The notes beneath the pieces were generated by a model. The model saw nothing but the letters and a program-made list of their open reading frames with translations. It was not told the DNA's origin and did not search any database. Shown piece after piece: positions 749 through 64,000 of a stretch of 64,000 bases of DNA. Source of the stretch: an uncultured Candidatus Saccharibacteria bacterium. GTDB lineage: Bacteria; Patescibacteriota; Doudnabacteria; UBA920. The stretch spans positions 97,842-161,841 of the forward strand of contig CAZDEP010000001.1 of assembly GCA_964504715.1 (NCBI GenBank), given 5' to 3'. Made by a program: the position numbers and the translations under genes. Position 1 is the first letter of the stretch. Every line of letters starts with the position of its first letter.

Positions 749-2065
749 TCATAAAAAATCTAAGGGATTGTAAGTGTAGCCATAAGGCACTTTATAAGGC
801 CCGTAAATATTTTCGTATTTACCCTTGGAAACGCCAAATCCTTCCGCATCGTATACGCCGAAGTGGATATGGTATCCCCTTTCGGGCCCGTAAAGTTTTT
901 TGGTGGTATTGCCCGTATTGCCCTCGTAGCCAATCAGGTCCCCTTGGCTGACCTTTTGGCCGGATGTAACTTTTATGGATCGCATATGGGCATAAAGCGT
1001 GACAATTTGGCTGGAGCCGTTTTTTGTAGAGAGGCTGTGTTTTACCGCCGCCCAATTGCCGAAAGATTGGTCTGATTTGTCGGTGTATACCACTTCGCCG
1101 TCCGCGGCCGCATAAATGGGCTGGCCGGCGGGGGCTGCCACATCTATCCCATTGTGAAAATTGTATCCGAGCGCGGTAAAACCGGTATTACCATACTTTT
1201 GCGTAAGCACGCCGTCCATGGGCCAGGCCAAAATGCCTTTGCTTACCCGGATGGTTTTATTTCCCAATTTTGTCCTGATCGCCGCATCCAAATCCTGGAC
1301 TTCTTTTTCCAGGTTAGTTTCTTCCTGTTTGCTTTGGGCCAGGAGCTTTTGGTAGTTGCTTTCAAGGCCCCGTGTTTGGTTTAAGAGCACCTGCCTCTGG
1401 TCCCTTTGTTCCTTCAGCGATGAACGGGTTATTTCCAGCTGTTCTTTAAGTTCTTCCAGTTGCTTGAGCTGTATTTTAAGTTCCGCCTGTTGTTTTTCAA
1501 GACGGGCCTTTAATTCCTCAATTTTTGCCAGCAGCTGGTAAATTTTTTCCTGCACACTTTGGTTGTATTGGATTTGGTCCAAAAATTCGGACAAGCTGCC
1601 GCTGCCCAAAGTGGTTTGGAGGGTATACTGGCTGTCGAATTCGTAAAGCTGCTGCAGGAGCAGGCTTAAAACATTTTTGTTTTCCTCAATGTCGTTGATT
1701 TTTTGCTGGATAAGCTTTTCAAGTTCGGCAATTTGCAGGCTCGTGTCGTCAATTTGGGTTTCGCGGGCCTGGATTTGGAGTTCTGTGGACGCTATTTCCT
1801 TGTCGAAAATCAACAGCTCATTTTTTAGGCTTGCTGATTTTGACCGCGTGTCGGCTATTTGCTTGGTTAGCCCCTGGATTTGCTTGTTTAATTCAGTCAG
1901 TTTTTTTTGCCTTTCCGCTTTTGCGGCATTTAAAGCGTCAACAGAAGAAGTATTGGTAGTCGTCGGAGTTTGGGCGGCAGCGCTAAAACCCGCCAGGCCG
2001 AGGCAGAAAATTCCGCCGAGGAGGAGGATTTTGGTTTTTGTGTTTATTTCTCTTAAGTAGTTCAT
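749..2065 (-). CDS. M23 (LytM) peptidoglycan endopeptidase with long N-terminal coiled coil (EnvC-like)
   Basis: C-terminal GIDVAAPAGQPIYAAADGEV...HIHFGVY (HxxxD and HxH M23 motifs). Coiled-coil N-terminal half rich in Q/E/L/K. Confidence 0.85.
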   Translation of the reverse strand: MNYLREINTKTKILLLGGIFCLGLAGFSAAAQTPTTTNTSSVDALNAAKAERQKKLTELNKQIQGLTKQIADTRSKSASLKNELLIFDKEIASTELQIQARETQIDDTSLQIAELEKLIQQKINDIEENKNVLSLLLQQLYEFDSQYTLQTTLGSGSLSEFLDQIQYNQSVQEKIYQLLAKIEELKARLEKQQAELKIQLKQLEELKEQLEITRSSLKEQRDQRQVLLNQTRGLESNYQKLLAQSKQEETNLEKEVQDLDAAIRTKLGNKTIRVSKGILAWPMDGVLTQKYGNTGFTALGYNFHNGIDVAAPAGQPIYAAADGEVVYTDKSDQSFGNWAAVKHSLSTKNGSSQIVTLYAHMRSIKVTSGQKVSQGDLIGYEGNTGNTTKKLYGPERGYHIHFGVYDAEGFGVSKGKYENIYGPYKVPYGYTYNPLDFL

Positions 2066-2107: not shown

Positions 2108-2141
2108 TAAAAATGCCCCGCTGTAAGCGGGGCATTTTAGT
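2108..2141 (-). terminator. Intrinsic terminator after gltX; stem-loop with conserved CCCGCTGTAAGCGGG core plus U-run
   Basis: aaaatgccccgctgtaagcggggcatttt, followed on the minus strand by tttttatttgg. Confidence 0.6.
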
Positions 2142-3667
2142 TATGCTGCGAGTTTTTCCCGGGCAATGGTTAGGCGGCTTAGTATTTCGTTTTTGCCAAA
2201 TCCAATGGCTAACACCGCCGCGACCTGGTTGGGCGGCGGGCTTTTTTCCATGCCCGTGAGCGCCGCCCTAAGCGGCCACAGCACGCTGCCTTTGTCATAA
2301 TTTTTTTCGGCAATAAAAGTTTCCAGTTCCGTTTGCAACTTATTTGCATCGGTTAAAACCGCTTCGTTTTTGCCTTCCAAAAATTCCGCAAGCTCTTTTA
2401 GTTTCTCACCCGCGTCTTGGACCGTGGATTTTTTCCAGGGCAAGAGCGAAGCCGGATATTCGGGCAGCTTAAAGAAGTAAGCCGTCCTCTGCCCTATCTC
2501 GGAAAGCTTTTTAAGGCGCTCCTGTTCCAAGGCGGCAATGGCCGTGAGGTAATCGGACGAAGTTTTGTTAACATCCACTCCCGCGGACTGCCAAAAAGGT
2601 TTGAGTTTTTCGGCCAGCTCCCCCGCCGGCAGTTTTTTTATATATTGGGAGTTAAACCATTCCAACTTGGTGTCATCAAATACGGCTCCGGCTTTGTTTA
2701 CGTTAGATAAGTCAAACTGCGTTATTAATTCATCGAGCGTAAATAATTCCTGGTCAGTCTTGGGATTCCACCCTAGAAATGCCACGAAGTTTATTAGAGC
2801 CTCTTTCAAATAGCCGTGCTTTAAGAAATCTTCCACCGCCACGTCGCCCTGGCGTTTGGATAATTTTGATTTGTCCGGGTTCAAAATCAGGGGCAGGTGC
2901 GCGAATTGGGTGGGCTGCCATCCCAGGGCTTTATAAATCAGCAGATGCTTGGGTGTGGAAGGGATCCATTCTTCGCCGCGGATAACGTGGGTAATTTCCA
3001 TTAAATGGTCGTCAACGACTACGGCTAAGTGGTAGGTGGGAAAGCCGTCGGATTTTAAAATTACCTGGTCGTCTAAAACTTTGTGGTCGTAAGTTATTTT
3101 GCCGTAAATCAAGTCGTTAATTTCGGTTTGGCCTTCCAAAGGGATGGCAAAGCGGACGACGGGATTTTTCCCCGCCGCCTTGAATTCACCCAATTTTGTT
3201 TTTACTTCATCGTCTTTTAAATTTCTGCACAGCCTGTCGTACATGGGCGGCTTTTTAAGGGCGGTTTGCTCTTTGCGCATTTGCTCCAGGCGCTGTTCGC
3301 TGCAAAAACAGTAGTAAGCCTTATTCTCTGCCAATAGTTGGTCAGCGTATTTTTGGTAAACGCCCATATGTTTTCTTTCCGACTGAACATATGGCCCGTA
3401 TTTGCCAGTGCCTATCCCCGGCCCTTCGTCAAATTTTATGCCGACAAAATTTAAAACTTCAATCAGGTTTTCTTTTGCACCTTCTACAAAGCGGTTTTGG
3501 TCCGTATCCTCTATCCTTAAAAAATGCTCTCCTCCACTATGCCTGGCAAACAAATACGAAAAAAGCGCAGTCCTTAAACTGCCAATATGCACAAAGCCGG
3601 TGGGTGATGGCGCGAAGCGGGTGCGGATTAATTGACCAGGATTGTTCATAATAAAATAGGTTCTCAA
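2141..3667 (-). CDS. gltX: Glutamyl-tRNA synthetase
   Basis: RFAPSPTGFVHIGSLRTALF (HIGH region) and KLSKR (KMSKS). Class I catalytic core. Confidence 0.95.
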   Translation of the reverse strand: MRTYFIMNNPGQLIRTRFAPSPTGFVHIGSLRTALFSYLFARHSGGEHFLRIEDTDQNRFVEGAKENLIEVLNFVGIKFDEGPGIGTGKYGPYVQSERKHMGVYQKYADQLLAENKAYYCFCSEQRLEQMRKEQTALKKPPMYDRLCRNLKDDEVKTKLGEFKAAGKNPVVRFAIPLEGQTEINDLIYGKITYDHKVLDDQVILKSDGFPTYHLAVVVDDHLMEITHVIRGEEWIPSTPKHLLIYKALGWQPTQFAHLPLILNPDKSKLSKRQGDVAVEDFLKHGYLKEALINFVAFLGWNPKTDQELFTLDELITQFDLSNVNKAGAVFDDTKLEWFNSQYIKKLPAGELAEKLKPFWQSAGVDVNKTSSDYLTAIAALEQERLKKLSEIGQRTAYFFKLPEYPASLLPWKKSTVQDAGEKLKELAEFLEGKNEAVLTDANKLQTELETFIAEKNYDKGSVLWPLRAALTGMEKSPPPNQVAAVLAIGFGKNEILSRLTIAREKLAA

Positions 3668-3698: not shown

Positions 3699-5096
3699 TT
3701 ATATCAATTTTGCCTGCCCGCCTCTGGCGGGGTCAATCTTGCCAGTGTTAATTATACCTTTTTGCTGCATTCCTTTCAAATCCTCCACAACTATTTCCGT
3801 AAGATTACTTCTTTCTGAATGTATGGTGCGGGCCAAGTTTTCCGGCAATTCCCATTTGAAATCTATAAATTCGTGGTTGTCGACTTTTACGTCGGTGTCC
3901 TGTCCTAAATTTTGGAAGTAAACAATGTTTTGTGTTTGGCCGCGGTTCCGGAAAGGCTTGCTAAACACGCGTGCCCAGGTTAGAGGAAAACGGTAAGAAT
4001 GGGTGCGGGGGGAGGTCCACAAATGTTTTAAGTTGTTAAGGCCCGTTTCCTCCAAAGCCTCGCGGCTGGCTCCCTCTTCCGGGCTTTCGTTTTTGTGCAG
4101 GCCGCCTTGCGGCAATTGCCAATAGTTGGCAAATTTGTCCCTGTCTTCCCCTAGTGAATCGTAAATTTTTGGCTTTGGATGCCGCCTGCAAATTAAAATG
4201 TTCCCCTGGCCGTTTAAAACAACTATAGCTGCGTTTGGCCTGAGTGGCATTTGTTCGTAAATTTTAAATAAAAGGAGTTTGTTGACTAAACCAAAAGTGG
4301 CGTTTTTTATGCGCCACACTCTGCCCGGTTGGGTTAGGAGCCGCCATAACCATTCAAAGCCCGCTTGTCTTACCCATTTTGGCGGATTTGCTTTTTTGCC
4401 GGCAAGATAATCGAACGTGCCCCCGAGGCCAACAAAGAGTTTGACCGAAGGCAGTTTGCCCTGATTTGCCCAAATCCACTGCTCCTGTTGGATAGGTCCG
4501 TAGGCGACAAATAATATACTCGGTTTGGACTTGTTTATTTCATCAATAACCGTTAAATCATTTGGATGCTTGTTTGAATACCCCGCAATAAATTCACTAT
4601 AATTTAAATTACGGCCGTTAACTATATTAAACAACTTTTCTGAGGCTATTTGGGGGGTGTCGCCAAAGCCGCCCAACAAAAAAATGGACGAATTATTTTC
4701 AGCAGCCATTTTGGCAATGTCCCAAATAAGCTCGCTGCCGGGAATTTTTTCTGCAAGCCCAGCTTCTTCCCTGTCTTTTTGTGAAAAAGGTAGAGCGACT
4801 AACGTAAATGCCGCTTGCCAAATGGTTTGAATAACTTTGAGCCAAAAGTTTTTAGCGGAAAGGGGCAAATTTAAAAACTTTTGCGCCCATAAAATTCCAA
4901 TGCCGTCCGCCACGGCAATATCAGCGTGGTTAAGCATAGTCATAACCGGCCGGTTTTTTAGGGCCGCGTAGAGAAATTCCGAGTAAACAGTGGTCAGCCA
5001 AATTTTTTCACCCTTAGCAATGCTTCGCCCTATTGAATTGAGCAATTCTTGCTTGGTGAGGCTGTCTATTTTAAGTCCGGCGATATCTGCTTTCAT
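3699..5096 (-). CDS. Fusion protein: WecG/TagA-family glycosyltransferase (N-terminal) plus NUDIX hydrolase (C-terminal)
   Basis: N-terminal ADGIGILWAQKFL...FLLGG...GLGGTFDYLAGKKANPPKWVRQAGFEWLWRL matches WecG/TagA. C-terminal QLPQGGLHKNESPEEGASREALEETGL is a Nudix box. Confidence 0.75.
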   Translation of the reverse strand: MKADIAGLKIDSLTKQELLNSIGRSIAKGEKIWLTTVYSEFLYAALKNRPVMTMLNHADIAVADGIGILWAQKFLNLPLSAKNFWLKVIQTIWQAAFTLVALPFSQKDREEAGLAEKIPGSELIWDIAKMAAENNSSIFLLGGFGDTPQIASEKLFNIVNGRNLNYSEFIAGYSNKHPNDLTVIDEINKSKPSILFVAYGPIQQEQWIWANQGKLPSVKLFVGLGGTFDYLAGKKANPPKWVRQAGFEWLWRLLTQPGRVWRIKNATFGLVNKLLLFKIYEQMPLRPNAAIVVLNGQGNILICRRHPKPKIYDSLGEDRDKFANYWQLPQGGLHKNESPEEGASREALEETGLNNLKHLWTSPRTHSYRFPLTWARVFSKPFRNRGQTQNIVYFQNLGQDTDVKVDNHEFIDFKWELPENLARTIHSERSNLTEIVVEDLKGMQQKGIINTGKIDPARGGQAKLI

Positions 5097-5208: not shown

Positions 5209-5496
5209 GTGGAATCTTTAGGAAAAATAACCAAAATCGCCTCGAGGCTGTCTGTAAAGCCAAAAAAAGACACCCACCTCCACTCCCCTGCCCATTTGTT
5301 GGCTGACGAGCTTTCGGTAAAACTCAACGACAGAAAGCATTTTGCTTTGTATTTGGGCTTGGCAAAAAAGTTTGACCAGGGTTTTTTGCGCAGTATTTTA
5401 GGTCAGGTGCTGGAGTCCAAGGAAGTCAAAAACCCTGGGAAGCTGTTTATGTTTTTGGTCAAGAAAAATAAGTATAATCCGAATGTTCCGACTTAG
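5209..5496 (+). CDS. Hypothetical small basic protein
   Basis: 95-aa ORF upstream of def with no recognisable motif. Start codon uncertain. Confidence 0.35.
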   Translation: MESLGKITKIASRLSVKPKKDTHLHSPAHLLADELSVKLNDRKHFALYLGLAKKFDQGFLRSILGQVLESKEVKNPGKLFMFLVKKNKYNPNVPT

Positions 5497-6103: not shown

Positions 6104-6640
6104 ATGAAGTTTATAAAAGATCTTTTGTTATTTGAAATAACCACCACCGGCACCGACTTGGATAAAGACAATATTATCCAGCTTTCTGCTGTGGTGCTCG
6201 ACAAAGATAACCTGCTGGAAAAAGGCTATTTTAATTCTTATATCCGGGTAAGTTATTTGGACAATATTATTTGGGAGCATTCAAAGCTTTTGCGCATCCC
6301 GCCTGAAATGCTGAAAAAAAGCAGCAAAGTTTATGATGTTATAAAAAAGTTCCACCACAGTTTTGGCAAAGAGTATTTGCTTGCCACCCACAACCTTACC
6401 AATATTATGTTTTTGAGGCAGGCGTTTAAAAAAGCCGTTGTGCCCTGGACTTACGAGCAGCATGTGCTGGATTTGTGGACTCTGGGCTACATTTATACCT
6501 TAAATTACGGCCTTAAAAAAATGCCCTCGGCCAATACTTTTTTTGATTATTTTAAAATTAAACAGTCCAACCCTTACGATGCCCTGGAAAAAGTGAGAAA
6601 CGAAGCGGAAGTTTTTAGGAAAATTATTAGAGAAGTTTAA
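6104..6640 (+). CDS. DEDDh 3'-5' exonuclease (DnaQ/oligoribonuclease-like), paralog 1
   Basis: LLLFEITTTG (Exo I) and C-terminal H-x4-D motif (YDALEKV region). Homologous to the next gene. Confidence 0.7.
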   Translation: MKFIKDLLLFEITTTGTDLDKDNIIQLSAVVLDKDNLLEKGYFNSYIRVSYLDNIIWEHSKLLRIPPEMLKKSSKVYDVIKKFHHSFGKEYLLATHNLTNIMFLRQAFKKAVVPWTYEQHVLDLWTLGYIYTLNYGLKKMPSANTFFDYFKIKQSNPYDALEKVRNEAEVFRKIIREV

Positions 6641-6750: not shown

Positions 6751-7314
6751 ATGGATTTCAAAAAAGATTTATTGCTTATTGACTTAGAGACCACGGGGTT
6801 GGATGCGCAAAAGCACGAAATAATCCAAATCGGCGCAGTACTTTTGGACAGGAAGACTTTGAAGGAAAAGGAAGTTTTTTCGTCATATAGTAAACCCGCT
6901 AAGTGGAAAAAGCGCGATCCGGAATCCATGAAAATAAACGGCATCACTTGGGAAAACCTAAAAGGCGCTCCCAGCTTGAAAGAAGTTTTGGGGAGGTTCA
7001 GCGGGCTTTGTAGGCCCGAAAACGTGGTGCTTTCTTATTACGGCGGCCCTTTGGATATGGATTTTTTGCGCGAAGCGTATAAAAAGGCCGGGCTTAAATG
7101 GCAGTTTGACTACCATTACTTTAACTTGTGGGCGGTATTCTATGCGTTTTTGGCTTCCAAGAATAAGCTAAGAAATTCCAAAAAATTTACGGGGTTTTCT
7201 TTGGACGATTTTATGAAGGAATTCAAAATTAAGTCCAACAGCCGCCACGACGCCTTGGAAGACTGCAGAATAGAGGCGGAGGTTTTGCGCCGAATCGTGC
7301 AAAATTTAAAATAG
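6751..7314 (+). CDS. DEDDh 3'-5' exonuclease (DnaQ/oligoribonuclease-like), paralog 2
   Basis: LLLIDLETTGLD (Exo I) and HDALEDCRIEAEV (Exo III, H-x4-D). Confidence 0.75.
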   Translation: MDFKKDLLLIDLETTGLDAQKHEIIQIGAVLLDRKTLKEKEVFSSYSKPAKWKKRDPESMKINGITWENLKGAPSLKEVLGRFSGLCRPENVVLSYYGGPLDMDFLREAYKKAGLKWQFDYHYFNLWAVFYAFLASKNKLRNSKKFTGFSLDDFMKEFKIKSNSRHDALEDCRIEAEVLRRIVQNLK

Positions 7315-12688: not shown

Positions 12689-13132
12689 TTACCGCACGCC
12701 TTGGTTGGTAAGGTAATGTGCACCGGCCGTATAATCTCCCGTAATACCCCCTAGGCAGAACGAAACGGTGTAAGCTAAGCCGTTTTGGCTTTCGTAGATG
12801 TAACTATTGTTGGCAGAGGTGCAGCCGCTTTCCACCGGTAAGGGGGCCGTGGGAATCTGGCCGATGTATTTGTTATTTAGCCCGGGAATGGTGGTGGCCG
12901 GAGTCCCCTGCACCGGATAAGTGTTGTTGGTGGTATAGTAGGCTTCTAAGGCGCTAGCCAGCTGTTTTATGTCGGCCGCGCGTTTGGCGTCGCGGCTCTT
13001 GCGCCTTGAGGACTGCACGGAAAGCGCCACGACGCTATATAGCGTGCCAATAATTGCTATAACTACCAGCAATTCCAGGAGCGTAAATCCAGACTGGCGT
13101 TGTAAAAAACCTTGTTTGTTTTGGATTTTCAT
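12689..13132 (-). CDS. Type IV pilin / pseudopilin (prepilin N-terminal methylation domain)
   Basis: GFTLLELLVVIAIIGTL prepilin cleavage/methylation motif. Confidence 0.85.
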   Translation of the reverse strand: MKIQNKQGFLQRQSGFTLLELLVVIAIIGTLYSVVALSVQSSRRKSRDAKRAADIKQLASALEAYYTTNNTYPVQGTPATTIPGLNNKYIGQIPTAPLPVESGCTSANNSYIYESQNGLAYTVSFCLGGITGDYTAGAHYLTNQGVR

Positions 13133-51531: not shown

Positions 51532-52677
51532 TTATATTTTATCACTTTTTGATTTGGAAGTCAATCCCCCATCTTTTGCACCATCAAATAAATCGGGAAT
51601 ATGGGGGTGTTCGCGTTTATAAATAATGACCGTGGCCAGAGCCATGAATATCATTAAACAAAAGAGCAAAACCAGGGCAATCAGTTTGCCCAAGCTCTGT
51701 AAAAATACAGCCGTAAAGCCGAAAAAGGCACTTATTGCGTAAAGGGTCAAAACAGCCTGTTTTTGGCTGAAGCCAATATCTAAAAGCCGGTAGTGCAAAT
51801 GCCTTCGGTCGCCGGAAAAAGGGCTGCTGCGGTAAAAAATACGCCTAATAATTACCCAGGCGACATCTAAAATGGGGATGCCCATAACCAAAAGCGCGGT
51901 GGCGATTTTCGCACCCAAAATTACGGCAAGTACGCCTAAGGTAAAGCCAATAAAGGTGCTGCCGCCTTCCCCCAAAAATATTCGCGCAGGGTGAAAATTG
52001 TAAATGAGAAAACCGACCAGCGCGCCCGCAAGCATTATGGCCAGGGTTGCCGTCATGGGTTGGTTAACTTTTTCAGTCAGGGAAACGGCGAATATCGCAA
52101 ACGCGCCAATGCAGCCTACGCCGGAAGTAAGGCCGTCCAGTCCGTCTAAAAATTTGGTCGTATAAATCATGCCCATTAACCACAGCCATATAAGCAGGGC
52201 TGAAATTTCCAATTTCCATCCGCCGGCCGCCGGACCAATTTGCAAGAAATAGTCAATATTAATGGGTGCGCCGAAGGGATTGCTTAAGAACTTAATCCCA
52301 ACGCCAATCCCGGCCACGACCACCACTAAAGATGCGAGTGCGGGGAAAAGCCAGGTGAGTTTGGGCGGCAAGTTATATTTGTCGTCCAAAATTCCGCCAA
52401 AAATAAGTAAGGCTCCCCCAGCAGCGGTAGCTAAAAAGAATTTTAACGGGATGATGTTAAAATCCACCTCGCCTGCGAATAAATAAACTGCCATTGAAAT
52501 GCAAAAAGCAAAAAATACCGCACTGCCCCCAATAAGCGGAGTCGGGTTTGGGTGGATTTTCCGGGGCGCGGAATTTGGGTAGTCTAAAATTTTAAACTTA
52601 AAAGCGAGACGTCTGACCAGGGCAGTAAAGAGGGTGGATAAGGCTACTGCCCAAAAAAACCAAAAAAAATAAGACAT
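51532..52677 (-). CDS. Polyprenyl-phosphate N-acetylhexosamine-1-phosphate transferase (GT4 MraY/WecA family)
   Basis: FLDGLDGLTSGV, PARIFLGEGGSTFIGF, RRHLHYRL motifs. About 10 TM helices. MraY versus WecA cannot be resolved by eye. Confidence 0.75.
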   Translation of the reverse strand: MSYFFWFFWAVALSTLFTALVRRLAFKFKILDYPNSAPRKIHPNPTPLIGGSAVFFAFCISMAVYLFAGEVDFNIIPLKFFLATAAGGALLIFGGILDDKYNLPPKLTWLFPALASLVVVVAGIGVGIKFLSNPFGAPINIDYFLQIGPAAGGWKLEISALLIWLWLMGMIYTTKFLDGLDGLTSGVGCIGAFAIFAVSLTEKVNQPMTATLAIMLAGALVGFLIYNFHPARIFLGEGGSTFIGFTLGVLAVILGAKIATALLVMGIPILDVAWVIIRRIFYRSSPFSGDRRHLHYRLLDIGFSQKQAVLTLYAISAFFGFTAVFLQSLGKLIALVLLFCLMIFMALATVIIYKREHPHIPDLFDGAKDGGLTSKSKSDKI

Positions 52678-52801
52678 AAAATAGATTTCAAATATTTGAT
52701 TTCAAAGGAATGCCCAATGCTTCAATTTAAAATGTGAAATTTGTCGTCCCTGCGGGACATCTGTGGTAGGTACAACCGAAGGCATGATAATCGGACATTT
52801 T

Positions 52802-54454
52802 TTATTCGCCGCCTTCGGCGGTTTGCATCTCCTTCATTGTTAGCGCGGTGTTTTCCCCTTTCCTGGCCTTGGGGGTTACCCAAAACTCCAGGTATTTTCC
52901 AAACATAAGCCTGGTTTGGGCTTCAATGGCCGGTAGGCTGTGAAAAAGCACGGCGGAAATAGGCACCAAAAACCATTGGAGGTACATGGAAATGGTTCTC
53001 CATGGGCCGTATTTGCGGGGCCTCGGGGGCAGCAGGATAAGGTTTACGTACACGCTGAAAATTAAAAACACCAGCGCCACACGCATAAGCGTCTGAGTGA
53101 CATAAGGCAAGTTAAAAGCCACCACGCTCTGCAAGAACTCTCGGCCGCCGACAATTAACGGCAGCCAGCCAAGCACGGCTATCATAATGCTGGCCGTGGC
53201 CCAAGTAAAGTTAGTTTCCACATATTGGTACAATTTGTAGATTTTCCAATATAGCGGTGTTTTGCTTTTTATTAGGGGCCAAATAAGATGCGGATAATAC
53301 TCTACGTTGTAAGCCCAGCGCCTTTTTTGCTTGTATTGGTTTATGAAAGTTTGCCATGTGGTTTCAGCCAAGCAGGTGTCCAAAGAGACAGGCAAAAACA
53401 GCGGGATAACCCGATAGTCGCCGTTATAGTGCAGGAAACACTGCCAATAAATAAACTCATCTTCATTGACAATATCTTTTTTCCAAAAACCGACTTCTTT
53501 TAAAGCCTTTAAAGTCATGGTGTGGGAAGAAAAAGTCTTGAGCCTGTCCGGGCGGCTGCTTTCGGTAAATTGCCAGGAAGATATGGTTATTACACGGATT
53601 AACGCGGGGCTGTCCCAAATGTTATTATTGTAAATGGCAATGGGCTGGAAGCTGGAACGGTATGGTTTTTCGGAAGTTAAAAATTCGTACATGACCCGGC
53701 CGAAATATTCCGGATGAATAATTGTGTCGGAATCAAAGTTGGAAACTAAAACCTTATCTTCCTCTATACCCAGTTTGGCGAGTTCAGGCAAAATTTGCTT
53801 GATTGAATAAGTGGCGTTGGCACTCTTGCCGCGGATCTCACCCTCCAAACCGTCCGGATGAACAGTATAAAATACTTTATGAAAGGTTTTTTGATAATTT
53901 TCCATAACCTGCTTGGCGGTGCCAGTTGCCGCCAAGCCGGCCCTTTCTTCACCCGCAAGCAGGAGAATAATTTTGTCTTTCGGGTAATGGCAATTGGCCA
54001 GGGCGCTAATGGAGGAGTTTAAGACTTCCGCGCTTTCATGGACAAAAGGTAATAGAACAACATGGTAATAGTTTTCAAGTGGCCAAATTTCCCGCCCCCT
54101 AGACAGGAGATTTTGCAGTCTTTTGATTTCTTGGTTCAAATAACGCCGTTCGCTATAGCTTTTAGCTTGCCTGCTTTCCAAAAATTCAATGAATTTCGGC
54201 AGATCGCTTAGCCTTTGCGCGTAATCCAGCCAGTTTATTTTGACCATGAATTTAAAGCGCAAATAACTGGATATAAGATGGATGGCGCCGTTAATGGCGC
54301 GCAAAAGCCAGTAAAAATCAAAACAAATTATAAAAAGCGCAGCCCAAATCGGCTTTGTAAAGGAAAGAATTATTGCAAAAATAAATACGGCCCAGAACTG
54401 GAGTCCGGGCAGGATTTCCCAAAACCTTTCTGTACGGCTTCGTTTTCTGAACAT
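52802..54454 (-). CDS. Processive family-2 glycosyltransferase (cellulose/chitin/PNAG-synthase-like), membrane-embedded
   Basis: DxD-type SNFDSDT and QxxRW motif (QKRRW), with N- and C-terminal TM bundles. Confidence 0.65.
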   Translation of the reverse strand: MFRKRSRTERFWEILPGLQFWAVFIFAIILSFTKPIWAALFIICFDFYWLLRAINGAIHLISSYLRFKFMVKINWLDYAQRLSDLPKFIEFLESRQAKSYSERRYLNQEIKRLQNLLSRGREIWPLENYYHVVLLPFVHESAEVLNSSISALANCHYPKDKIILLLAGEERAGLAATGTAKQVMENYQKTFHKVFYTVHPDGLEGEIRGKSANATYSIKQILPELAKLGIEEDKVLVSNFDSDTIIHPEYFGRVMYEFLTSEKPYRSSFQPIAIYNNNIWDSPALIRVITISSWQFTESSRPDRLKTFSSHTMTLKALKEVGFWKKDIVNEDEFIYWQCFLHYNGDYRVIPLFLPVSLDTCLAETTWQTFINQYKQKRRWAYNVEYYPHLIWPLIKSKTPLYWKIYKLYQYVETNFTWATASIMIAVLGWLPLIVGGREFLQSVVAFNLPYVTQTLMRVALVFLIFSVYVNLILLPPRPRKYGPWRTISMYLQWFLVPISAVLFHSLPAIEAQTRLMFGKYLEFWVTPKARKGENTALTMKEMQTAEGGE

Positions 54455-54462
54455 AAAAAAAA

Positions 54463-54810
54463 TTAATTTTGGGCAGCCAGAAGAATTAGGCTAAGCAATA
54501 CCAAAAGTTGAAAAAAGAGCGTGCCGGCGGCAATCGCGCGCGGCAGGAATTCTTCAGGTTCCCCCAGCTTTCGGTATATGGCAATGTTAAGTATGCTAAC
54601 AGCCAAAGCCAGCAAAGGCAGTGAGTATAAATTGGAGCCATTTCCATACCAAATTACTCCCGAATGCACGGTATATTTTAAGGCCACATTTTCGCCTTTA
54701 AGCCCATCTTTGAAAACAACTAATAAAAATGTTATAATATTAATCAAGAAAGAAGAAATCCACAGAAACAAAAAATCGCTTAGTTTTGAGGGGAAATATT
54801 TAAATTTCAT
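54463..54810 (-). CDS. Small 4-TM membrane protein in the glycosylation cluster
   Basis: 115 aa, hydrophobic. No motif; function unknown. Confidence 0.4.
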   Translation of the reverse strand: MKFKYFPSKLSDFLFLWISSFLINIITFLLVVFKDGLKGENVALKYTVHSGVIWYGNGSNLYSLPLLALAVSILNIAIYRKLGEPEEFLPRAIAAGTLFFQLLVLLSLILLAAQN

Positions 54811-54862
54811 AAAAGTATCTAAATAATTATACCGAAAAAGAGCGGTTTAAGCAAAGGCACAC

Positions 54863-56533
54863 TTGCTTTTCATGAATAAAAAACAAAAACTCTATTTTTT
54901 TGTTGTTGTCCTTCTGGCAGTATTTTTTAGGTTTTTCCAAATTACCCAAATGCCCGGCGGCTTGTTTCCCGATGAGGCCGCAAACGGATTGGATATAAAT
55001 TCAATGCAACAGGGCCAGTTGCAGCCTTTTTATGAGCGCGGCAACGGACGCGAGGCTTTGTTTTTTTATATGGAGTGGGCCAGCGTTGGAATTTTTGGCA
55101 AAGGCGCATGGCAAATGCATGCGGTTTCGGCCAGCGTTGGGCTTTTAGCGGTTATTGTATGCTTTTTGGTTACCAGGCGGCTGTTAATGGTTGGCCAAAA
55201 GTCGGATGACCCACAGGCTCTCGATCGAAGTATAAATATAGCTTTATTGGCGTCTTTTTTAATGGCAGTTTCCAGCTGGCACACCGTGCTTTCGCGCACG
55301 GCCTTTAGGGCAAACTTAATCCCCTTGTTTGCGGGCTTGAGTTTTTTATTTATACTCAAAACTTACCAGGCAACAAAAAACCGGGAAAAATATTTAAACG
55401 CTTTTGTCGCAGGCGCGGTCTTTGCACTCGGCTTTTATACCTACATTGCCTACAGGATTTTAGTCCCAATAGTGGGGTTCCTAATTATTTGGCCTTGGCT
55501 GGCGGTGGGGCTAAAAACCGGCATAAGGGAGTATTGGAAACAATTTTTACTATTTTTGATGGCCGCTGTCATATTTTTCTATCCGCTTTTCAGTTATTTT
55601 AGGAGCCATCCCGGCAGTTTTATTGGCAGAAGCGGTCAAGTGTCAGTATTTAATCCCGAGCTTAACGGTGGCGATTTAATAGGCACAATTTTGGAAGTTT
55701 CGCGTTTAAGCTTTTTGGCTTATTTTACTGAAGGAGATTTAAACTGGCGGCACAACATATCGGGACTGCCTTTCCTTTCTCCCCTGGTTTCGCCGTTCTT
55801 TGCAGCCTCACTTGCAATAGTTACTTTGTTGGCAATTGTTTATTTCTTTGCCCCCAGAAAAAGGGCGGTGTGGTGGAAATATGCTGTGCTGGCCGCTTGG
55901 TTTTGGGGCTTGCTGGTGCCTGTTATTACCACGGGCGAAGGCATCCCCCATGGTTTGAGGTCAATAGGAACGATTCCCCCTGTGTTTATAATTAGCGCAC
56001 TGGGATTGTATAAGTTCGGCGAATTTGTTTGGGGTCTCCATAAAAAATATGGAATCTCCGGCATTTTAAAAAATTGGCTGGTAAAAAGCATGTACAAGCT
56101 CGCAGTTTTTTGCTATCTTTTAGCCTTGGTTTTGCAAACATATTTTGCCTATTTTGTTTATGCCGCAAGCAGCCCGGAAAATTTTTATTCCTTCCGCAGC
56201 GATCTCGTGCCAGTTTCCAAATATTTAATTTCCCGCTGCAACAAAGAGCAAACCTATTTAGTGCTAGATAAGTTTTCCGTCCAATCCACCGATTTTTTGA
56301 CCAGTGACCCAAACGGCAATTTTACGAGTCCCTGCAGTGTCCCCTACCGGCAGGTTGATCCGGAAGATTCCTGGAAATTACCGGAATTAAAGCCGGGCGA
56401 TGAAATAGTTTTTGCGCAATCGAGCATTTTTGACATTAAAAAATTTAAACAACACCATACAAACACCCATTTACGGCTGGAGGTCAGGAATAAATTCGGC
56501 CAGACGGTAATGGCGGTGTATGGAAGTCAGTAG
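54863..56533 (+). CDS. GT39/ArnT-PMT family polyprenyl-phosphate-sugar glycosyltransferase
   Basis: N-terminal FPDEAANGL...GNGREALFFY loop typical of the ArnT/PMT superfamily. About 12 TM helices. Confidence 0.7.
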   Translation: MLFMNKKQKLYFFVVVLLAVFFRFFQITQMPGGLFPDEAANGLDINSMQQGQLQPFYERGNGREALFFYMEWASVGIFGKGAWQMHAVSASVGLLAVIVCFLVTRRLLMVGQKSDDPQALDRSINIALLASFLMAVSSWHTVLSRTAFRANLIPLFAGLSFLFILKTYQATKNREKYLNAFVAGAVFALGFYTYIAYRILVPIVGFLIIWPWLAVGLKTGIREYWKQFLLFLMAAVIFFYPLFSYFRSHPGSFIGRSGQVSVFNPELNGGDLIGTILEVSRLSFLAYFTEGDLNWRHNISGLPFLSPLVSPFFAASLAIVTLLAIVYFFAPRKRAVWWKYAVLAAWFWGLLVPVITTGEGIPHGLRSIGTIPPVFIISALGLYKFGEFVWGLHKKYGISGILKNWLVKSMYKLAVFCYLLALVLQTYFAYFVYAASSPENFYSFRSDLVPVSKYLISRCNKEQTYLVLDKFSVQSTDFLTSDPNGNFTSPCSVPYRQVDPEDSWKLPELKPGDEIVFAQSSIFDIKKFKQHHTNTHLRLEVRNKFGQTVMAVYGSQ

Positions 56534-56535
56534 CA

Positions 56536-56620
56536 ATTAGCTAGTAGCCGGTAGTCTGTAGGCGGGCAGTTTGGCTACCCCCTACTTGCTACAAGCTACT
56601 CGCTAAATTCTCAATATTAG
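56536..56620 (+). repeat. Leader element: 3 direct xGTAG units and 3 inverted CTAC units before the start of the second GT39 gene
   Basis: agctagtagccggtagtctgtaggcgg...ctacttgctacaagctactcgcta. Confidence 0.5.
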
Positions 56621-56623
56621 TTT

Positions 56624-58213
56624 ATGAAAAAATATTTTTGGCTTATTGTAATTTTATTAATCGGCGCAATACTTCGTTATTATCACAACACCGACATCTC
56701 GCTTTGGCATGACGAAGCTTTTTCAGCTCTGTTGATTAAGTACAATTGGAGCGAGATGATGTATCGCATAGGCCTCGACGTCCATCCGCCGGCGTATTAC
56801 GTGTTTTTGAGGCTCTGGCATTATATTTTTGGCGACAGTTTGCTTTCCTTGCGTTCTTTTACTGTTTTTTTCAGCCTTGCAACCGTTTGGGCGACCTGGC
56901 TATTTGTAAAAGAAGCGTTTAAGAACGAAAAGTTTGCATTGTGCGCCGCAGCTTTAGTGGCTTTGAATCCGTTTCAAATCCAGTATGCAACGGAAGCGCG
57001 AATGTATACTATGGGTGCGTTTTTTGCAATTTTGGCCGCTTACTTTTTAACCAAGGCCCTCAACCTTGGCGTTTCCATTCATAAAACCGCCCAAGCGGAG
57101 CAGGTGCCCAATTTGCCGGAAGTAATTTCAGGCAAGAAAAAAATGCTTGCCGCTTATTTCGGCTTTGTGCTATCCACCGTCATAATTATTTATACGCATT
57201 ACTATCTGCTGTTTACGGCTGCGGCAATAGGTTTCTACGGCTTGATTTACATTTTTCGCCATCATTTGGGCCACGGTTTGGGGAAATATAAATGGCTCTT
57301 AATTTCTTTTGCGTTAATCGTTCTGGCTTTTTTGCCTTGGCTAAAAGTTTTCCTTTTCCAATATAGGCAAGTGGGCGCCGGCTACTGGATACCGCCTATG
57401 GACAGGTGGAGCATACCTTCCGTGCTTTATACTTTGCTTTTTGGTTTTTCCCATGACGTCAACCAGGTAAGCGTGCAAAAGGTTTTAATATTTGTTGCAT
57501 TGGGAAGTCTGGTTGTTTTATGGCTGTTTTTAAAGAAAACTCAAAGCTTTTCCAAATGGCTGGTCTTTTTGGCAATTTTGGCGCCATTTTTGGGCAGTGT
57601 TCTCTTTTTGGTTTTGGCCAAGCTTAAAGGTAGTAACAGTTCGGTGTTTTTAGTCCGGTACTTCCTTTACAGTTCGGCATTTTTGTCAGTTATGGTTGCC
57701 GGGTGGTTGGTTAGCCTAAAACAAAAAAAAATCTCGACAGTTTTATTGAGCATATATTTAATTTTGAATTTTTGGGCATTCCTAAAATATTGGGATAACC
57801 TCCATATCCAATCCCGCCCCGGGATGAATGCCGGATCAAAGTATTTGAAGGCCAACATTCAGCCCAACGACAAGCTTTATGCGGGCAGCAGTTTTATTTT
57901 TTTCAATTTAAAATATTATGTCAGCCAGGTAAAAATCAGCCAACGCCCCTTGCTGTTTACCGGGGGAACACGGGAGGCTTCGTCTCTCCCCCATTTTGCG
58001 GGAACAGCTATTTTAACAAACGAAGATTTATTGCCCGATTTTAATTCTGCTGTAAAAACAGGCGAACAGGTTTGGCTGGTGTGGACCAGCGGCTTTGGTT
58101 CCTCAAAACCTGCAGTGCCTAAAAATTGGGCTCAATTAAGCGAAAAAGAATACCCGGAAGTTAGGCCATACTTAGGCGCAAGTACTTTTGTCACACAGTA
58201 TGTAGTGAATTAG
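56624..58213 (+). CDS. GT39/PMT_2 family glycosyltransferase (second paralog)
   Basis: LWHDEAFSA...DVHPPAYYVFLRLW loop, characteristic of the PMT_2/YkcB-like family. Multi-TM. Confidence 0.7.
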   Translation: MKKYFWLIVILLIGAILRYYHNTDISLWHDEAFSALLIKYNWSEMMYRIGLDVHPPAYYVFLRLWHYIFGDSLLSLRSFTVFFSLATVWATWLFVKEAFKNEKFALCAAALVALNPFQIQYATEARMYTMGAFFAILAAYFLTKALNLGVSIHKTAQAEQVPNLPEVISGKKKMLAAYFGFVLSTVIIIYTHYYLLFTAAAIGFYGLIYIFRHHLGHGLGKYKWLLISFALIVLAFLPWLKVFLFQYRQVGAGYWIPPMDRWSIPSVLYTLLFGFSHDVNQVSVQKVLIFVALGSLVVLWLFLKKTQSFSKWLVFLAILAPFLGSVLFLVLAKLKGSNSSVFLVRYFLYSSAFLSVMVAGWLVSLKQKKISTVLLSIYLILNFWAFLKYWDNLHIQSRPGMNAGSKYLKANIQPNDKLYAGSSFIFFNLKYYVSQVKISQRPLLFTGGTREASSLPHFAGTAILTNEDLLPDFNSAVKTGEQVWLVWTSGFGSSKPAVPKNWAQLSEKEYPEVRPYLGASTFVTQYVVN

Positions 58214-61927: not shown

Positions 61928-62350
61928 TTAATCCAGAAACTTAACCGTTTCATAAATGTTCCTAAAGGCGTCGAGGTTCTGGATTTCGTGTGGGGGGAAA
62001 TATTTAAGTTCCGAAATTTCCTCTTCAAGGCCCGCTTTAAGCTGGCCGCTTAAAATTTTACATTCGTATGTGCAAATAATAATTTGCCATACATCCCCGC
62101 TCGGTTGTTGTTGGGTTTCCGAAAAAATTTTAGGGATAAGTCTAACTATTTCCACATTTAACCCTATTTCTTCCCTTACCTCGCGAACCAGCGCTTCTTC
62201 GGGCGTTTCCCTGAATTCTATTCCCCCGCCCGGGAATTCCCATTTGCCGTGCGCGGATTTTAAATCCGGTTGATGCCTGCGCGCAAGCAAAATTTCCCCT
62301 TTTTCGTTGCGAATTACGCCCACGACAATTGTAATCTGCTTGGTATGCAT
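61928..62350 (-). CDS. NUDIX hydrolase (MutT-like)
   Basis: Nudix box GKWEFPGGGIEFRETPEEALVREVREEIGL. Confidence 0.85.
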   Translation of the reverse strand: MHTKQITIVVGVIRNEKGEILLARRHQPDLKSAHGKWEFPGGGIEFRETPEEALVREVREEIGLNVEIVRLIPKIFSETQQQPSGDVWQIIICTYECKILSGQLKAGLEEEISELKYFPPHEIQNLDAFRNIYETVKFLD

Positions 62351-64000
62351 TATGTATATAAAGGCAGGTTGCCGGTAAGTTCCTTAACTTTGGATTCGGC
62401 TCCAAAAACCAAAATCCCCAAATGTTCTATTTCTTCGTGCGGCTTTTGGGCAGTCCATTCAGCCACTTTCTTGTCATTGGTGGACTCCAGCATTTCTTTG
62501 GTAAATTCCGCAACCTCTAAACCGTGTTGTTTGGCTTGCTCGGCGAGCTTTTTAAGCTCCTGGTTGGAGGTGGCCGTTTTTATCATTATGGCGTAGCGGA
62601 TGTTGAGCTTAATGTTTTTTCCGTCTTTGGATTTTATTTCATCCTGGTGGAAAAGGTTGTGGCCTTTTTTTGTAATGCGCGCCGCAAATGCCGCGTTTAA
62701 ATGGGCGACAGTGTTAAGCTCTTTCCACGCCTCAAGCCCTGCATTTTTGCTAATAACAGCCACGGCCAGCAGGTTTTCTTTGGCTTTTGCCGGGCCCTTT
62801 GCAGCTTCTTTCATGAGCGGGAAAACCACAGTTTCGCGTATGGATTTGTCGGCCAAAATCGCAAACAGCCTTTCGGAAAGTCCAAAACCCGCGCATGGCG
62901 GCATGCCATATTCCATGGCTTCTACGTAGTGCTCGTCCAACATTTGAGCTTCCTCATCGCCGGCCGCCCTTAAAGACGCCTGCTCTTCAAACCTTAAGCG
63001 CTGGTCAACGGGGTCGTTAAGCTCGCCAAAGCCTTTGCCCAATTCCGTGCCGTAGGCAATTATTTGCATCCTTTGTACCAGCCTCGGGTTTTTAGGGTCG
63101 CGCTTGGCCAAAGGCTCCAATTCTATTGGTTGGTCGACAAGAAAAACCGGTTTTTGCGCCGGGATATTTTTACGGACTTCTTTGAAAATCAGGTCAATGA
63201 GCCTGCCCCGTCCGGCAAATGTCTCATATTTTAAATTATGGCTGTCGCAATATTTTTTTAAGTCCGCGTCTAATGCTGTAAGCAGGTCAATCCCTGTGTG
63301 TTTTTTAAAAATTTCAATATAGCTGACTTTTTCCCATTTTCCGCTCCAGTCAACCGTCTGTCCCCTTGCCGTAATAATTAGGGTGCCAAAAGTATCCTCG
63401 ATTATCTTTTGGTACATTTCGCGCACCAAATCCATCATTTCTTCAAAAGATGCATAGGCCCAGTAAAATTCCATCTGAGTGTAGTCCTGCAAATGTTCGG
63501 TAGAAATCCCCTCGTTTCGAAAAATGCGACCGATTTCAAAAACTTTTTCATACCCGGCAACCAGCATTTTTTTAAGCGGCAACTCTAGCGATATGCGTAA
63601 GTAAAAATCTTTATCCAGGGCGTTATGGTGGGTAATAAAAGGCCTGGCTTCGGCGCCACCGGTGGAGGACTCCAAAATTGGCATGTCAATATGCAAAAAA
63701 CCTTTCGCCTGCAAAAATTCCCTCATGCTGTTCCAAAAGCGGGCTTTTTTTATAAAAATTTCCCTGGCTTCAGGGTTAAGCAGTATGTCCAAATACCTTT
63801 TCCTTAAGCGTTCTTCTTCGTCCGCAAGGCCAAAGTGTTCGGAGGGAAGCGGAAGCAGGCTCTTAGCCAGTAACTTGTAGCCGCTAGCCGCTAAAGTCTT
63901 TTCACCGGTTTTAGTTTTAAAGAGGTTGCCCTCTATTTGGACAAAGTCGCCCAAGTCAAAATTTTTAACAAAAAATTTGTAAGTTTCGCCCAGGCCGTCC
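62350..64000 (-). CDS. lysS: Lysyl-tRNA synthetase (class II); N-terminus runs off the window end
   Basis: Class II motifs (FRNEG, GGAEARPF, CAGFGLSERL). Frame stays open upstream of the TTG at 63954 to position 64000, so the N-terminal OB domain continues beyond the window. Confidence 0.9.
   Translation of the reverse strand, partial: DGLGETYKFFVKNFDLGDFVQIEGNLFKTKTGEKTLAASGYKLLAKSLLPLPSEHFGLADEEERLRKRYLDILLNPEAREIFIKKARFWNSMREFLQAKGFLHIDMPILESSTGGAEARPFITHHNALDKDFYLRISLELPLKKMLVAGYEKVFEIGRIFRNEGISTEHLQDYTQMEFYWAYASFEEMMDLVREMYQKIIEDTFGTLIITARGQTVDWSGKWEKVSYIEIFKKHTGIDLLTALDADLKKYCDSHNLKYETFAGRGRLIDLIFKEVRKNIPAQKPVFLVDQPIELEPLAKRDPKNPRLVQRMQIIAYGTELGKGFGELNDPVDQRLRFEEQASLRAAGDEEAQMLDEHYVEAMEYGMPPCAGFGLSERLFAILADKSIRETVVFPLMKEAAKGPAKAKENLLAVAVISKNAGLEAWKELNTVAHLNAAFAARITKKGHNLFHQDEIKSKDGKNIKLNIRYAIMIKTATSNQELKKLAEQAKQHGLEVAEFTKEMLESTNDKKVAEWTAQKPHEEIEHLGILVFGAESKVKELTGNLPLYT

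Follow-up and report, generated by a model that had tools for sequence, protein, structure and literature searches.

A GT26 glycosyltransferase fused to an RppH/Ap4A-hydrolase-like Nudix domain, widespread in Patescibacteria

Results

Two enzyme domains in one reading frame

In the stretch of DNA analyzed here (the window: 64,000 nucleotides of contig CAZDEP010000001.1, from an assembly named as an uncultured Candidatus Saccharibacteria bacterium), a single open reading frame (ORF) of 465 codons plus a stop occupies positions 3699..5096 of the minus strand, from an ATG start to a TAA stop, and joins an N-terminal glycosyltransferase (GT) of family GT26 to a C-terminal Nudix hydrolase domain. 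An earlier note on this DNA, which left the strand unstated, had read the same frame as a fusion of these two domain types, and a domain scan recovered both of them above their curated cutoffs: PF03808 (Glyco_tran_WecG) over residues 113-263 (E = 1.5e-38, 132.6 bits, cutoff 27.4) and PF00293 (NUDIX) over residues 285-426 (E = 2.2e-17, 63.8 bits, cutoff 21.1). The gene assignment rests on the ORF list, on these Pfam matches, and on an identical protein in an independent assembly. Judged from their residues, both halves look catalytically intact. The protein ends in a variable tail (residues 446-465; 3702..3761, on the minus strand as are all parts of the gene) that is unaligned across the family and modeled at a predicted local distance difference test (pLDDT) score of only 44-55, and that is probably disordered.

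The region near 4100-4300 had been flagged as a place where a frameshift might have merged two genes, and the interdomain linker (residues 264-285) was found at 4242..4307, as delimited by a family alignment and by the helix in the AlphaFold2 (AF2) model. The protein was recovered with 100% identity from two sources, the 177-kb NCBI contig and a Logan assembly made independently from the run SRR14271345. When a set of 5.8 billion proteins was searched and the best 120 matches were taken, all 120, from many separate assemblies, carried both Pfam domains in one protein (44-100% identity, 419-531 residues), and both halves stood in one continuous frame at 63 of the 79 loci that we fetched from GTDB species genomes. 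We aligned 233 fused sequences, 118 from the clade of the window's protein (tier 1) and 115 from a second group of ~400-residue fusions (tier 2, described below). In every one of these, the linker measured 22 residues (range, 21-23). In the AF2 models, it forms part of one long helix, residues 257-280, which runs from the GT tail into the first strand of the Nudix domain. The window's protein was modeled at a pLDDT of 93.9, and two divergent fusions, one from each group, yielded predicted template modeling (pTM) scores of 0.90 and 0.89 with the same connecting helix. The junction is thus a conserved helix of fixed length and not a low-complexity linker, and the fixed spacing together with the pTM of ~0.9 fits a rigid joining of the two predicted domains.

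These observations bear directly on the reading that the ORF consists of two neighboring genes merged by a sequencing or assembly frameshift, or of a recent neutral merger without functional integration. Genes are tightly packed and frequently overlap in these genomes, and versions of the gene that encode the GT half alone occur at the same locus, as such a merger would suggest. The identical protein from independent assemblies, the hundreds of fused orthologs with identities down to 30%, the invariance of linker length and active sites alongside the high pTM, and the ancestral position of the fused state (see below) all speak against it. We therefore reject the artifact and give the merger reading practically no chance.

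The glycosyltransferase half

The N-terminal half matched TagA of T. italicus (7mpk) with an E value of 1.4e-24 in a search against solved structures. Because the match splits into two pieces, with query residues 3-80 on TagA 4-81 and query residues 114-264 on TagA 80-226, we conclude that the protein carries an insert of ~33 residues at positions 81-113 and retains the C-terminal tail of TagA. The half can accordingly be divided into an N-terminal part of the GT26 core (residues 1-80, with T36, Y38, E40, and D64; 4857..5096; aligned to TagA 4-81), the clade-specific insert (residues 81-113; 4758..4856; a gap in the TagA alignment that is kept in the family and modeled as helices), a Rossmann-like C-terminal part of the core (residues 114-233, with K117, Q204, and D229; 4398..4757; aligned to TagA 80-195 and supported by Foldseek), and the C-terminal tail (residues 234-263, with E248, W249, R252, R259, and R262; 4308..4397; aligned to 7mpk up to TagA 226). 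Foldseek superposed the predicted structure on 7mpk, 5wb4, and 5wfg with target template modeling (TM) scores of 0.88-0.91 and E values of about 1e-12 to 1e-13; the modeled GT half has the GT-E fold of the TagA crystal structures. By sequence, the protein belongs to the GT26 WecB/TagA/CpsF superfamily, as it scored 90.1 bits against a cutoff of 69 with the NCBIfam superfamily model TIGR00696. The scores with the narrower models were below their cutoffs, both for the TagA/TarA equivalog (NF041710; 97.1 bits, cutoff 350) and for WecG (NF002980; 72 bits, cutoff 323).

The catalytic residues of the family can be followed through the alignment. In TagA, D65 acts as the general base, N39 and Q167 contact N-acetylmannosamine (ManNAc), Y137, K166, and D191 contact the uridine, R83 is a conserved pocket residue, and the tail contributes E210, W211, R214, R221, and R224, the last two of which hold the diphosphate of UDP (PMC8784642, PMC6493773). 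The window's protein has D64 at the position of D65, Q204 at Q167, and D229 at D191, and in the tail E248, W249, R252, R259, and R262 at E210, W211, R214, R221, and R224. All of these, as well as T36 and E40, are ~100% conserved among the 233 fusions. Read from these residues, the protein is a competent GT26 enzyme, and the family match, the fold, and the catalytic residues agree with the previously proposed type, a lipid-linked linkage-unit transferase of the TagA/WecG kind.

Two pocket positions depart from TagA in the window's clade. The position of N39 is a tyrosine (Y38) in 118 of 118 sequences, as compared to asparagine in 115 of 115 in tier 2, and that of R83 is a lysine (K117). Given the invariant tyrosine and the lysine, the donor sugar in this clade may be other than ManNAc. 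Since, in addition, the equivalog cutoff was missed and only Q167 is kept, the name TagA/TarA is not justified, and from the sequence, a designation as TagA (ManNAc transferase) is probably wrong in specificity for the window's clade.

The insert at 81-113 forms helices at residues 84-104 and 106-111 in the AF2 model, and its median length is 32 residues in tier 1 versus 3 in tier 2. It is the most hydrophobic stretch of the protein. We considered a transmembrane helix here and rejected it, as the Kyte-Doolittle hydropathy reached 1.35 over 19 residues, which is under the usual threshold for such helices; the insert is at most a peripheral element. In some relatives (P0090, P0037, P0112, and P0089; alignment columns ~165-320), long Pro/Ser/Gly-rich low-complexity loops lie in or just after the insert helix, and the site evidently tolerates large insertions.

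The Nudix half

The Nudix domain spans residues 286-445 (3762..4241), as delimited by Pfam, the NCBIfam RppH models, the solved structures 1f3y and 4s2v, and Foldseek. Its Nudix box, GGLHKNESPEEGASREALEETGL, read directly from the sequence at residues 331-353 (4038..4106), matches the canonical GX5EX7REUXEEXGU, as the earlier note had stated. Across the 233 fusions, G331, E346, and E350 never vary and E349 hardly does, and the above-threshold PF00293 match together with the catalytic glutamates of the box places the domain in the Nudix superfamily.

Several lines of evidence converged on the type of Nudix enzyme. The best NCBIfam match was the RppH model NF001938 (86.8 bits), with query residues 280-444 aligned to positions 7-170 of 172, i.e., over the full length. 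The best matches among solved structures were lupin Ap4A hydrolase (1f3y) and Escherichia coli RppH (4s2v). In the Foldseek comparison of the predicted structure, RppH reached TM scores of 0.77-0.79, while GDP-mannose mannosyl hydrolase reached 0.57-0.60, with its entries (1rya and 2i8t) ranking below all RppH and Ap4A-hydrolase entries, and no GDP-mannose hydrolase model of NCBIfam matched the domain. The nearest named stand-alone relatives are annotated as RNA pyrophosphohydrolase or (di)nucleoside polyphosphate hydrolase.

A manual mapping of the functional residues, based on the E. coli sequence and in agreement with the HMMER alignments, pointed the same way. E. coli RppH holds the 5′ phosphates of its substrate with R8, N10, R27, Q37, Y77, Q95, and K140, binds metal with E53, E57, Q37, and E120, and accommodates the base of the second nucleotide in a cleft of R27, S32, V137, and F139 (PMC7144940). 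The phosphate ligands R8, N10, Q37, Y77, Q95, and K140 correspond to R286, N288, Q330, Y368, Q387, and R429 (arginine or lysine in the family), and the metal ligands E53, E57, and E120 correspond to E346, E350, and E409. The terminal-phosphate and metal ligands are ~100% conserved across both tiers. Because NCBIfam, solved structures, fold, nearest relatives, and residue mapping all agree, we assign the Nudix half, at the level of sequence, to the clade of RppH and (di)nucleoside-polyphosphate hydrolases and not to the nucleotide-sugar type that had been suggested before. Its predicted chemistry is the hydrolysis of terminal phosphates or polyphosphates, as in enzymes of the RppH/ApnA type.

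The same comparison bears on the possibility that the Nudix half controls the donor, hydrolyzing the UDP-sugar (UDP-HexNAc to UMP and HexNAc-1-phosphate, where HexNAc is an N-acetylhexosamine) and thereby regulating flux. For GDP-mannose mannosyl hydrolase, a similar flux role has been proposed in the colanic-acid cluster. The partner domain does use a UDP-sugar, and Nudix enzymes that act on UDP-sugars and on GDP-mannose exist (PMC5389931), with 1rya and 2i8t among the weaker fold matches. However, the domain is far closer to RppH and Ap4A hydrolase than to GDP-mannose hydrolase by both TM score and NCBIfam, its conserved residues form the terminal-phosphate grip of RppH whereas a UDP-sugar has no terminal phosphate, and destruction of the donor beside its user would be futile. 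We consider such donor control improbable.

The base cleft differs between the two groups. In tier 2, R27 is kept in 93 of 115 sequences and the position of F139 is often hydrophobic, as in a base pedestal. In the window's clade, an insert of ~19 residues (306-324; 4125..4181), located by the family alignment between the positions of RppH R27 and S32, lies in the cleft and is hydrophilic (HPKPKIYDSLGEDRDKFAN).

These features can be set against the idea that the domain acts on a lipid pyrophosphate at the cytoplasmic face, converting polyprenyl-pyrophosphate (polyprenyl-PP), including freshly synthesized carrier, to polyprenyl-phosphate and Pi, or releasing dead-end polyprenyl-PP-sugars, such that the carrier is made reusable. 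Nudix enzymes that hydrolyze prenyl diphosphates are known. The known undecaprenyl-PP (C55-PP) phosphatases (BacA/UppP and the PAP2 enzymes) have outward-facing active sites, and to our knowledge, the dephosphorylation of de novo C55-PP on the cytoplasmic side is unresolved. Cleaving the terminal phosphate off a diphosphate monoester is chemically the same reaction as turning pp-RNA into p-RNA, and the Nudix domain would be rigidly anchored to a peripheral-membrane GT that uses a polyprenyl-PP-sugar as its acceptor (PMC6493773). Against this stand the nucleotide-binding features of RppH, most of which are still present (among them R27 and, within tier 2, the hydrophobic pedestal), and the hydrophilic character of the clade-specific cleft insert. 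We give the lipid substrate only a slim chance.

Ancestry and repeated loss of the Nudix domain

The fusion is no peculiarity of the window; it proved to be an old architecture that is widespread across the ultra-small Patescibacteria. All named members of the 120 best matches were labeled Patescibacteria or Candidatus Doudnabacteria, and in GTDB species genomes, a scan turned up 575 confirmed related stretches, from which the 79 loci were fetched. A search with the Nudix half revealed the second, larger group, the ~400-residue WecG-Nudix fusions of tier 2, in bins labeled Parcubacteria, Falkowbacteria, and Patescibacteria. Neither of the two clade-specific inserts is present in these proteins, and their TPNPE motif is the canonical one (N39 in 115 of 115). 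Several records labeled Acidobacteriaceae, Verrucomicrobiia, Gammaproteobacteria, or Saccharibacteria (L080, L081, L084, and many "uncultured Candidatus Saccharibacteria" loci) carry the block of GT(-Nudix), gltX, and M23 peptidase genes as it is found in Doudnabacteria; such labels probably reflect misbinning or generic naming of metagenome-assembled genomes of Patescibacteria.

In a neighbor-joining tree rooted on TagA (30 bootstraps), the ~400-residue fused group was basal, and the window's clade was monophyletic (100%) with a fused first branch. On this sequence-based tree, the fusion is shown to be ancestral to a large family of Patescibacteria (candidate phyla radiation), and because both the basal group and the first branch of the window's clade are fused, we take the GT-only genes to reflect secondary loss of the Nudix domain. 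The GT-only genes fell into two well-supported clades (L080/81 and L079/77/83/76) plus three single genes (L062, L067, and L068) that each lie nearer to a fused protein than to any of the GT-only ones. By this count, the Nudix domain would have been lost at least five times while the GT was kept at the same locus, with the crown nodes of the tree poorly supported. The GT-only genes end cleanly just past the conserved "YK" of the linker helix, and they have kept their place in the genome. Within ±4 kb of GT-only orthologs, at 16 loci, we found no separate Nudix gene.

A search of the Nudix half against 1.84 billion representatives did not return a verified Nudix-only form. Seven short matches were read individually, and four were recognized as fragments of fusions: the last residues of the GT tail are still present in P0121 and P0132, the frame of P0137 stays open (reading FKVFRS) as far as the end of its contig, and P0146 clusters with a 432-residue fusion. 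P0125, whose start lies inside the linker motif, also looks like a fragment of a fusion, and P0123 and P0144 were ambiguous. The Nudix domain thus appears to be an accessory that can be lost, whereas the GT cannot.

We also looked for other phosphohydrolases that could have taken the place of the lost domain. One GT-only ortholog (L080; JBLMZH010000049.1, 3410-4822) is a single 471-codon ORF in which a HAD-family hydrolase (PF00702/PF13419) is fused in frame to the N terminus of the GT. This arrangement was unique among 85 loci and may be a one-off or an assembly artifact, and we therefore rejected HAD as a general substitute. A gene for a LigT/ThpR-type 2H phosphoesterase (RNA 2′,3′-cyclic phosphodiesterase family) sits immediately before the GT start, in the same orientation and 0-151 nucleotides away, in eight loci (L061, L066, L076, L077, L079, L080, L081, and L083), all in basal clades; in L080, the HAD domain lies between this gene and the GT. 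Because in two of the eight (L061 and L066) it co-occurs with a fused Nudix domain, it was likewise rejected as a substitute and is better seen as a neighbor of the lineage.

The pattern of retention and loss bears on the reading that the Nudix half clears the by-product of the transferase, cleaving the released UDP to UMP and Pi, which would relieve inhibition and in effect prevent reversal of the first committed step in glycopolymer synthesis. This would be a cytoplasmic analog of the Golgi UDPases and GDPases that serve glycosyltransferases. TagA follows an ordered Bi-Bi mechanism in which UDP leaves last and inhibits competitively with respect to the donor (PMC6493773), and E. coli RppH hydrolyzes nucleoside diphosphates (NDPs), including UDP, at a low rate (PMC7144940). 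In the fusion, the helix that carries the ligands of the UDP diphosphate, R259 and R262, leads into the Nudix strand with R286 and N288 at the fixed 22-residue spacing, and the Nudix domain was found only attached to the GT. The window's clade, moreover, changed the donor pocket of the GT (N39Y and R83K) and the base cleft of the Nudix domain together, although this co-change is a single phylogenetic event. Against clearance, no characterized member of the RppH/Ap4A-hydrolase clade is an efficient NDPase, the hydrolysis of NDPs being a slow side reaction, and we infer that a tethered UDPase without a tunnel would drain bulk UDP and waste a phosphoanhydride bond otherwise open to recycling by nucleoside-diphosphate kinase. 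That the Nudix domain was lost repeatedly, with the GT left unchanged, also weighs against clearance. The former proposal of substrate channeling or by-product clearance hence stands in part: clearance is possible, given the inhibition of TagA by UDP and the slow activity of RppH on it, while nothing points to a channel and the Nudix domain was repeatedly lost without the GT. Overall, clearance is the main alternative to the reading that we favor below, if a rather doubtful one.

Genomic neighborhood

Directly downstream of the fusion gene lies gltX, for glutamyl-tRNA synthetase (2141..3649, minus strand; gene calls and PF00749), and then, as the third gene of the block, a coiled-coil M23 peptidase of the EnvC/DipM/NlpD-like kind (749..2065, minus strand; PF01551 in all contexts, and NCBIfam). 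The gap between the fusion and gltX is about 50 nucleotides in the window and 4 nucleotides or an overlap elsewhere. The same-strand order of fusion, gltX, and M23 peptidase is kept from the window to Parcubacteria and Falkowbacteria; at one locus from Falkowbacteria, the block lacks gltX, and the fusion directly adjoins the peptidase gene. The best promoter-like match of the region (TTGAAA-17-TATAAT, 11/12) lies inside the 3′ end of the fusion gene, upstream of gltX (3751-3779, minus strand), and from the sequence, gltX may have its own promoter; 12 promoter-like sites were observed in the region versus 6.7 ± 2.4 expected.

In the window's clade, the block is surrounded by def, fmt, two RNase_T exonucleases, queA, HU, and MltG, and elsewhere by CorA, a GT4 glycosyltransferase, alr, ddl, ftsQ, and a xerC-like gene. 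No dedicated glycan gene cluster was found directly around the fusion gene, the neighbors being housekeeping and wall or division genes. This mixture of RNA/translation and wall/division functions does not discriminate between the explanations. A candidate partner lies farther away: 46 kb from the fusion, at 51532..52677 (minus strand), is a gene for a polyprenyl-phosphate HexNAc-1-phosphate transferase of the WecA/TagO type (PF00953, E = 1.3e-27), whose best NCBIfam match, TIGR02380 wecA, scored 111 bits, below its cutoff and better than mraY. By its family, this enzyme could make the acceptor of the GT26 enzyme. It belongs to a cluster of membrane glycan-synthesis genes at 51532-58213, with the WecA/TagO-like GT4-family phosphotransferase, a 550-residue GT2-like protein, a PMT_2/GT-C-type transferase, and a 115-residue ORF and a 556-residue membrane protein without a family match; the cluster is a possible partner pathway of the GT26 enzyme.

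Further features of the region were recorded in passing. At 5209-5496 (plus strand), a 95-residue ORF without a Pfam or NCBIfam match is divergent from the fusion gene; the same product occurs at this position in L001 and L004, and small unannotated ORFs occur there in L003 and L005. Between def and fmt lie the tandem paralogs of the RNase_T/DnaQ-type 3′-5′ exonuclease (6104-6640 and 6751-7314, plus strand), a pair that was kept in 4 of 4 Doudnabacteria-type relatives examined. In another subclade, a gene of the CAP/SCP (cysteine-rich secretory protein) family lies directly upstream of the GT at 18 loci, both fused and GT-only (including L032, L035, L043, L057, L070, L072, L075, L078, and L082). 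The window also encodes, at 12689-13132 (minus strand), a type IV pilin-like protein with an N-terminal methylation motif and a weak ComP_DUS match, and T4SS_pilin-like genes follow the M23 peptidase in the relatives L003-L005. A second, stand-alone Nudix gene of the MutT type (140 residues; 61928-62350, minus strand) lies directly downstream of a class II aminoacyl-tRNA synthetase (D/K/N type, with a C-terminal DUF2000; 62350-63954, minus strand), with which it shares base 62350.

Discussion

Each half of the fusion has well-studied relatives, from which it also departs. The GT half shares with TagA/TarA (T. italicus 5WB4, 5WFG, 7MPK, and 7N41; a UDP-ManNAc:GlcNAc-PP-undecaprenol ManNAc transferase, GlcNAc being N-acetylglucosamine) the fold, the general base, Q167, D191, and a C-terminal tail by which the active site is completed. 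It differs by the added C-terminal Nudix domain, the 33-residue hydrophobic insert, and the exchanges of N39 to tyrosine and R83 to lysine, such that its specificity for donor and acceptor may differ, and it lies outside any teichoic-acid gene cluster. WecG, the UDP-ManNAcA (N-acetylmannosaminuronic acid) transferase of enterobacterial common antigen in E. coli, is a member of the same GT26 family and carries out the same kind of reaction on a lipid-PP-GlcNAc acceptor; it associates peripherally with the membrane via C-terminal helices (PMC9804384). It has no Nudix domain, however, and the host of the fusion is not an enterobacterium. The Nudix half finds its best matches, in sequence and fold, in RppH/NudH and the asymmetric Ap4A hydrolases (E. 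coli 4S2X and 6VCK; lupin 1F3Y), with which it shares all metal and terminal-phosphate ligands; here, by contrast, the domain is fused to a GT, scores below the cutoff, and in the window's clade has a changed base cleft with the ~19-residue insert.

Two known proteins offer partial precedents for the linkage. GDP-mannose mannosyl hydrolase (NudD/WcaH/Gmm; 1RYA and 2I8T) is a Nudix enzyme that is linked genetically to polysaccharide synthesis and acts on a sugar-nucleotide donor, which makes it the nearest to the idea of the earlier note, but it stands alone as a protein of its own, and its structure matches the domain far less well than RppH does. NadM-Nudix (NMN adenylyltransferase/ADP-ribose pyrophosphatase; 2R5W) is a precedent for a Nudix domain covalently fused to a nucleotide-using enzyme of one pathway, although with another partner, an ADP-ribose-type Nudix domain, the opposite domain order, and a poor match over the whole chain (root mean square deviation, 13 Å). 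The closest functional analogy is the complex of RppH with DapF in E. coli, in which an enzyme of cell-wall precursor synthesis binds and stimulates RppH (PMC4227774, PMC6061855, PMC6061791); its structures, 6vck and 6d1q, were among the Foldseek matches. There, an RppH-type Nudix enzyme is joined to an envelope-precursor enzyme that serves as its structural activator, but the complex is noncovalent, and DapF is an epimerase of the lysine/peptidoglycan pathway and not a GT.

We tentatively favor a reading in which the Nudix half is an RppH-like hydrolase of nucleoside polyphosphates or RNA 5′ ends that is held on a membrane GT, as a covalent analog of RppH-DapF, and we put this at somewhat short of an even chance. 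In this model, the GT half would work at the cytoplasmic face of the membrane and attach the second sugar to the polyprenyl-PP-HexNAc that the WecA/TagO-like enzyme of the window supplies. The Nudix half, dependent on Mg, would strip the terminal phosphate or phosphates from a nucleoside 5′-di-, tri-, or tetraphosphate end, with pp(p)-RNA 5′ ends and/or Np4N alarmones and caps as its substrates. The GT domain would act as a fixed partner that places the Nudix domain at the membrane and possibly activates it, and the protein would thus couple the synthesis of an envelope polymer to the turnover of RNA 5′ ends or alarmones. Three things point to this reading: homology, the conservation of the ligands, and the dispensability of the Nudix domain that its repeated loss implies. 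The neighborhood across the family offers both RNA/translation genes (gltX, def, fmt, the RNase_T pair, and queA, with LigT basally) and wall/division genes (M23, MltG, alr, ddl, and ftsQ).

Several points weigh against it. The 86.8 bits with NF001938 fall below the RppH equivalog cutoff of 116. In the window's clade, the base cleft is remodeled (S32 to Y, V137 to H, and F139 to E, with R27 variable as R, F, or K) and interrupted by the insert, whose median length is 20 residues in tier 1 versus 5 in tier 2, such that RNA need not be recognized in the way that E. coli RppH recognizes it. The substrate of a Nudix domain cannot be read from its sequence, and fusions more often join enzymes that share a metabolite, which would favor a substrate related to the GT.

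Consistent with the earlier note, which knew of no description of the fusion, we found no account of a GT26-Nudix fusion in a library of 8 million full-text papers, the Nudix-clan review and the lipocone paper included, with most subscription journals lying outside the scope of that search. While each half is a well-studied kind of enzyme, it is for their rigid, ancient, and widespread union in Patescibacteria that we found no account. In public databases, these fusions stand as "WecB/TagA/CpsF family glycosyltransferase", and hundreds of such entries conceal a second enzyme. Because the genomes of Patescibacteria are minimal, one would not expect a conserved additional catalytic domain to be without a role. 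Should the domain clear UDP or act on the lipid carrier, it would provide a new way to drive or recycle the first committed step of wall-polymer synthesis, and in the latter case, a membrane-tethered RppH-like Nudix domain would be a new answer for the cytoplasmic dephosphorylation of C55-PP. Should it be of the RppH type in function, the fusion would be a second, independent case, after RppH-DapF, of an RNA 5′-end or alarmone hydrolase tied to an enzyme of envelope synthesis. It would then suggest that wall growth and RNA turnover are linked more generally, and would offer a single polypeptide in which to study it.

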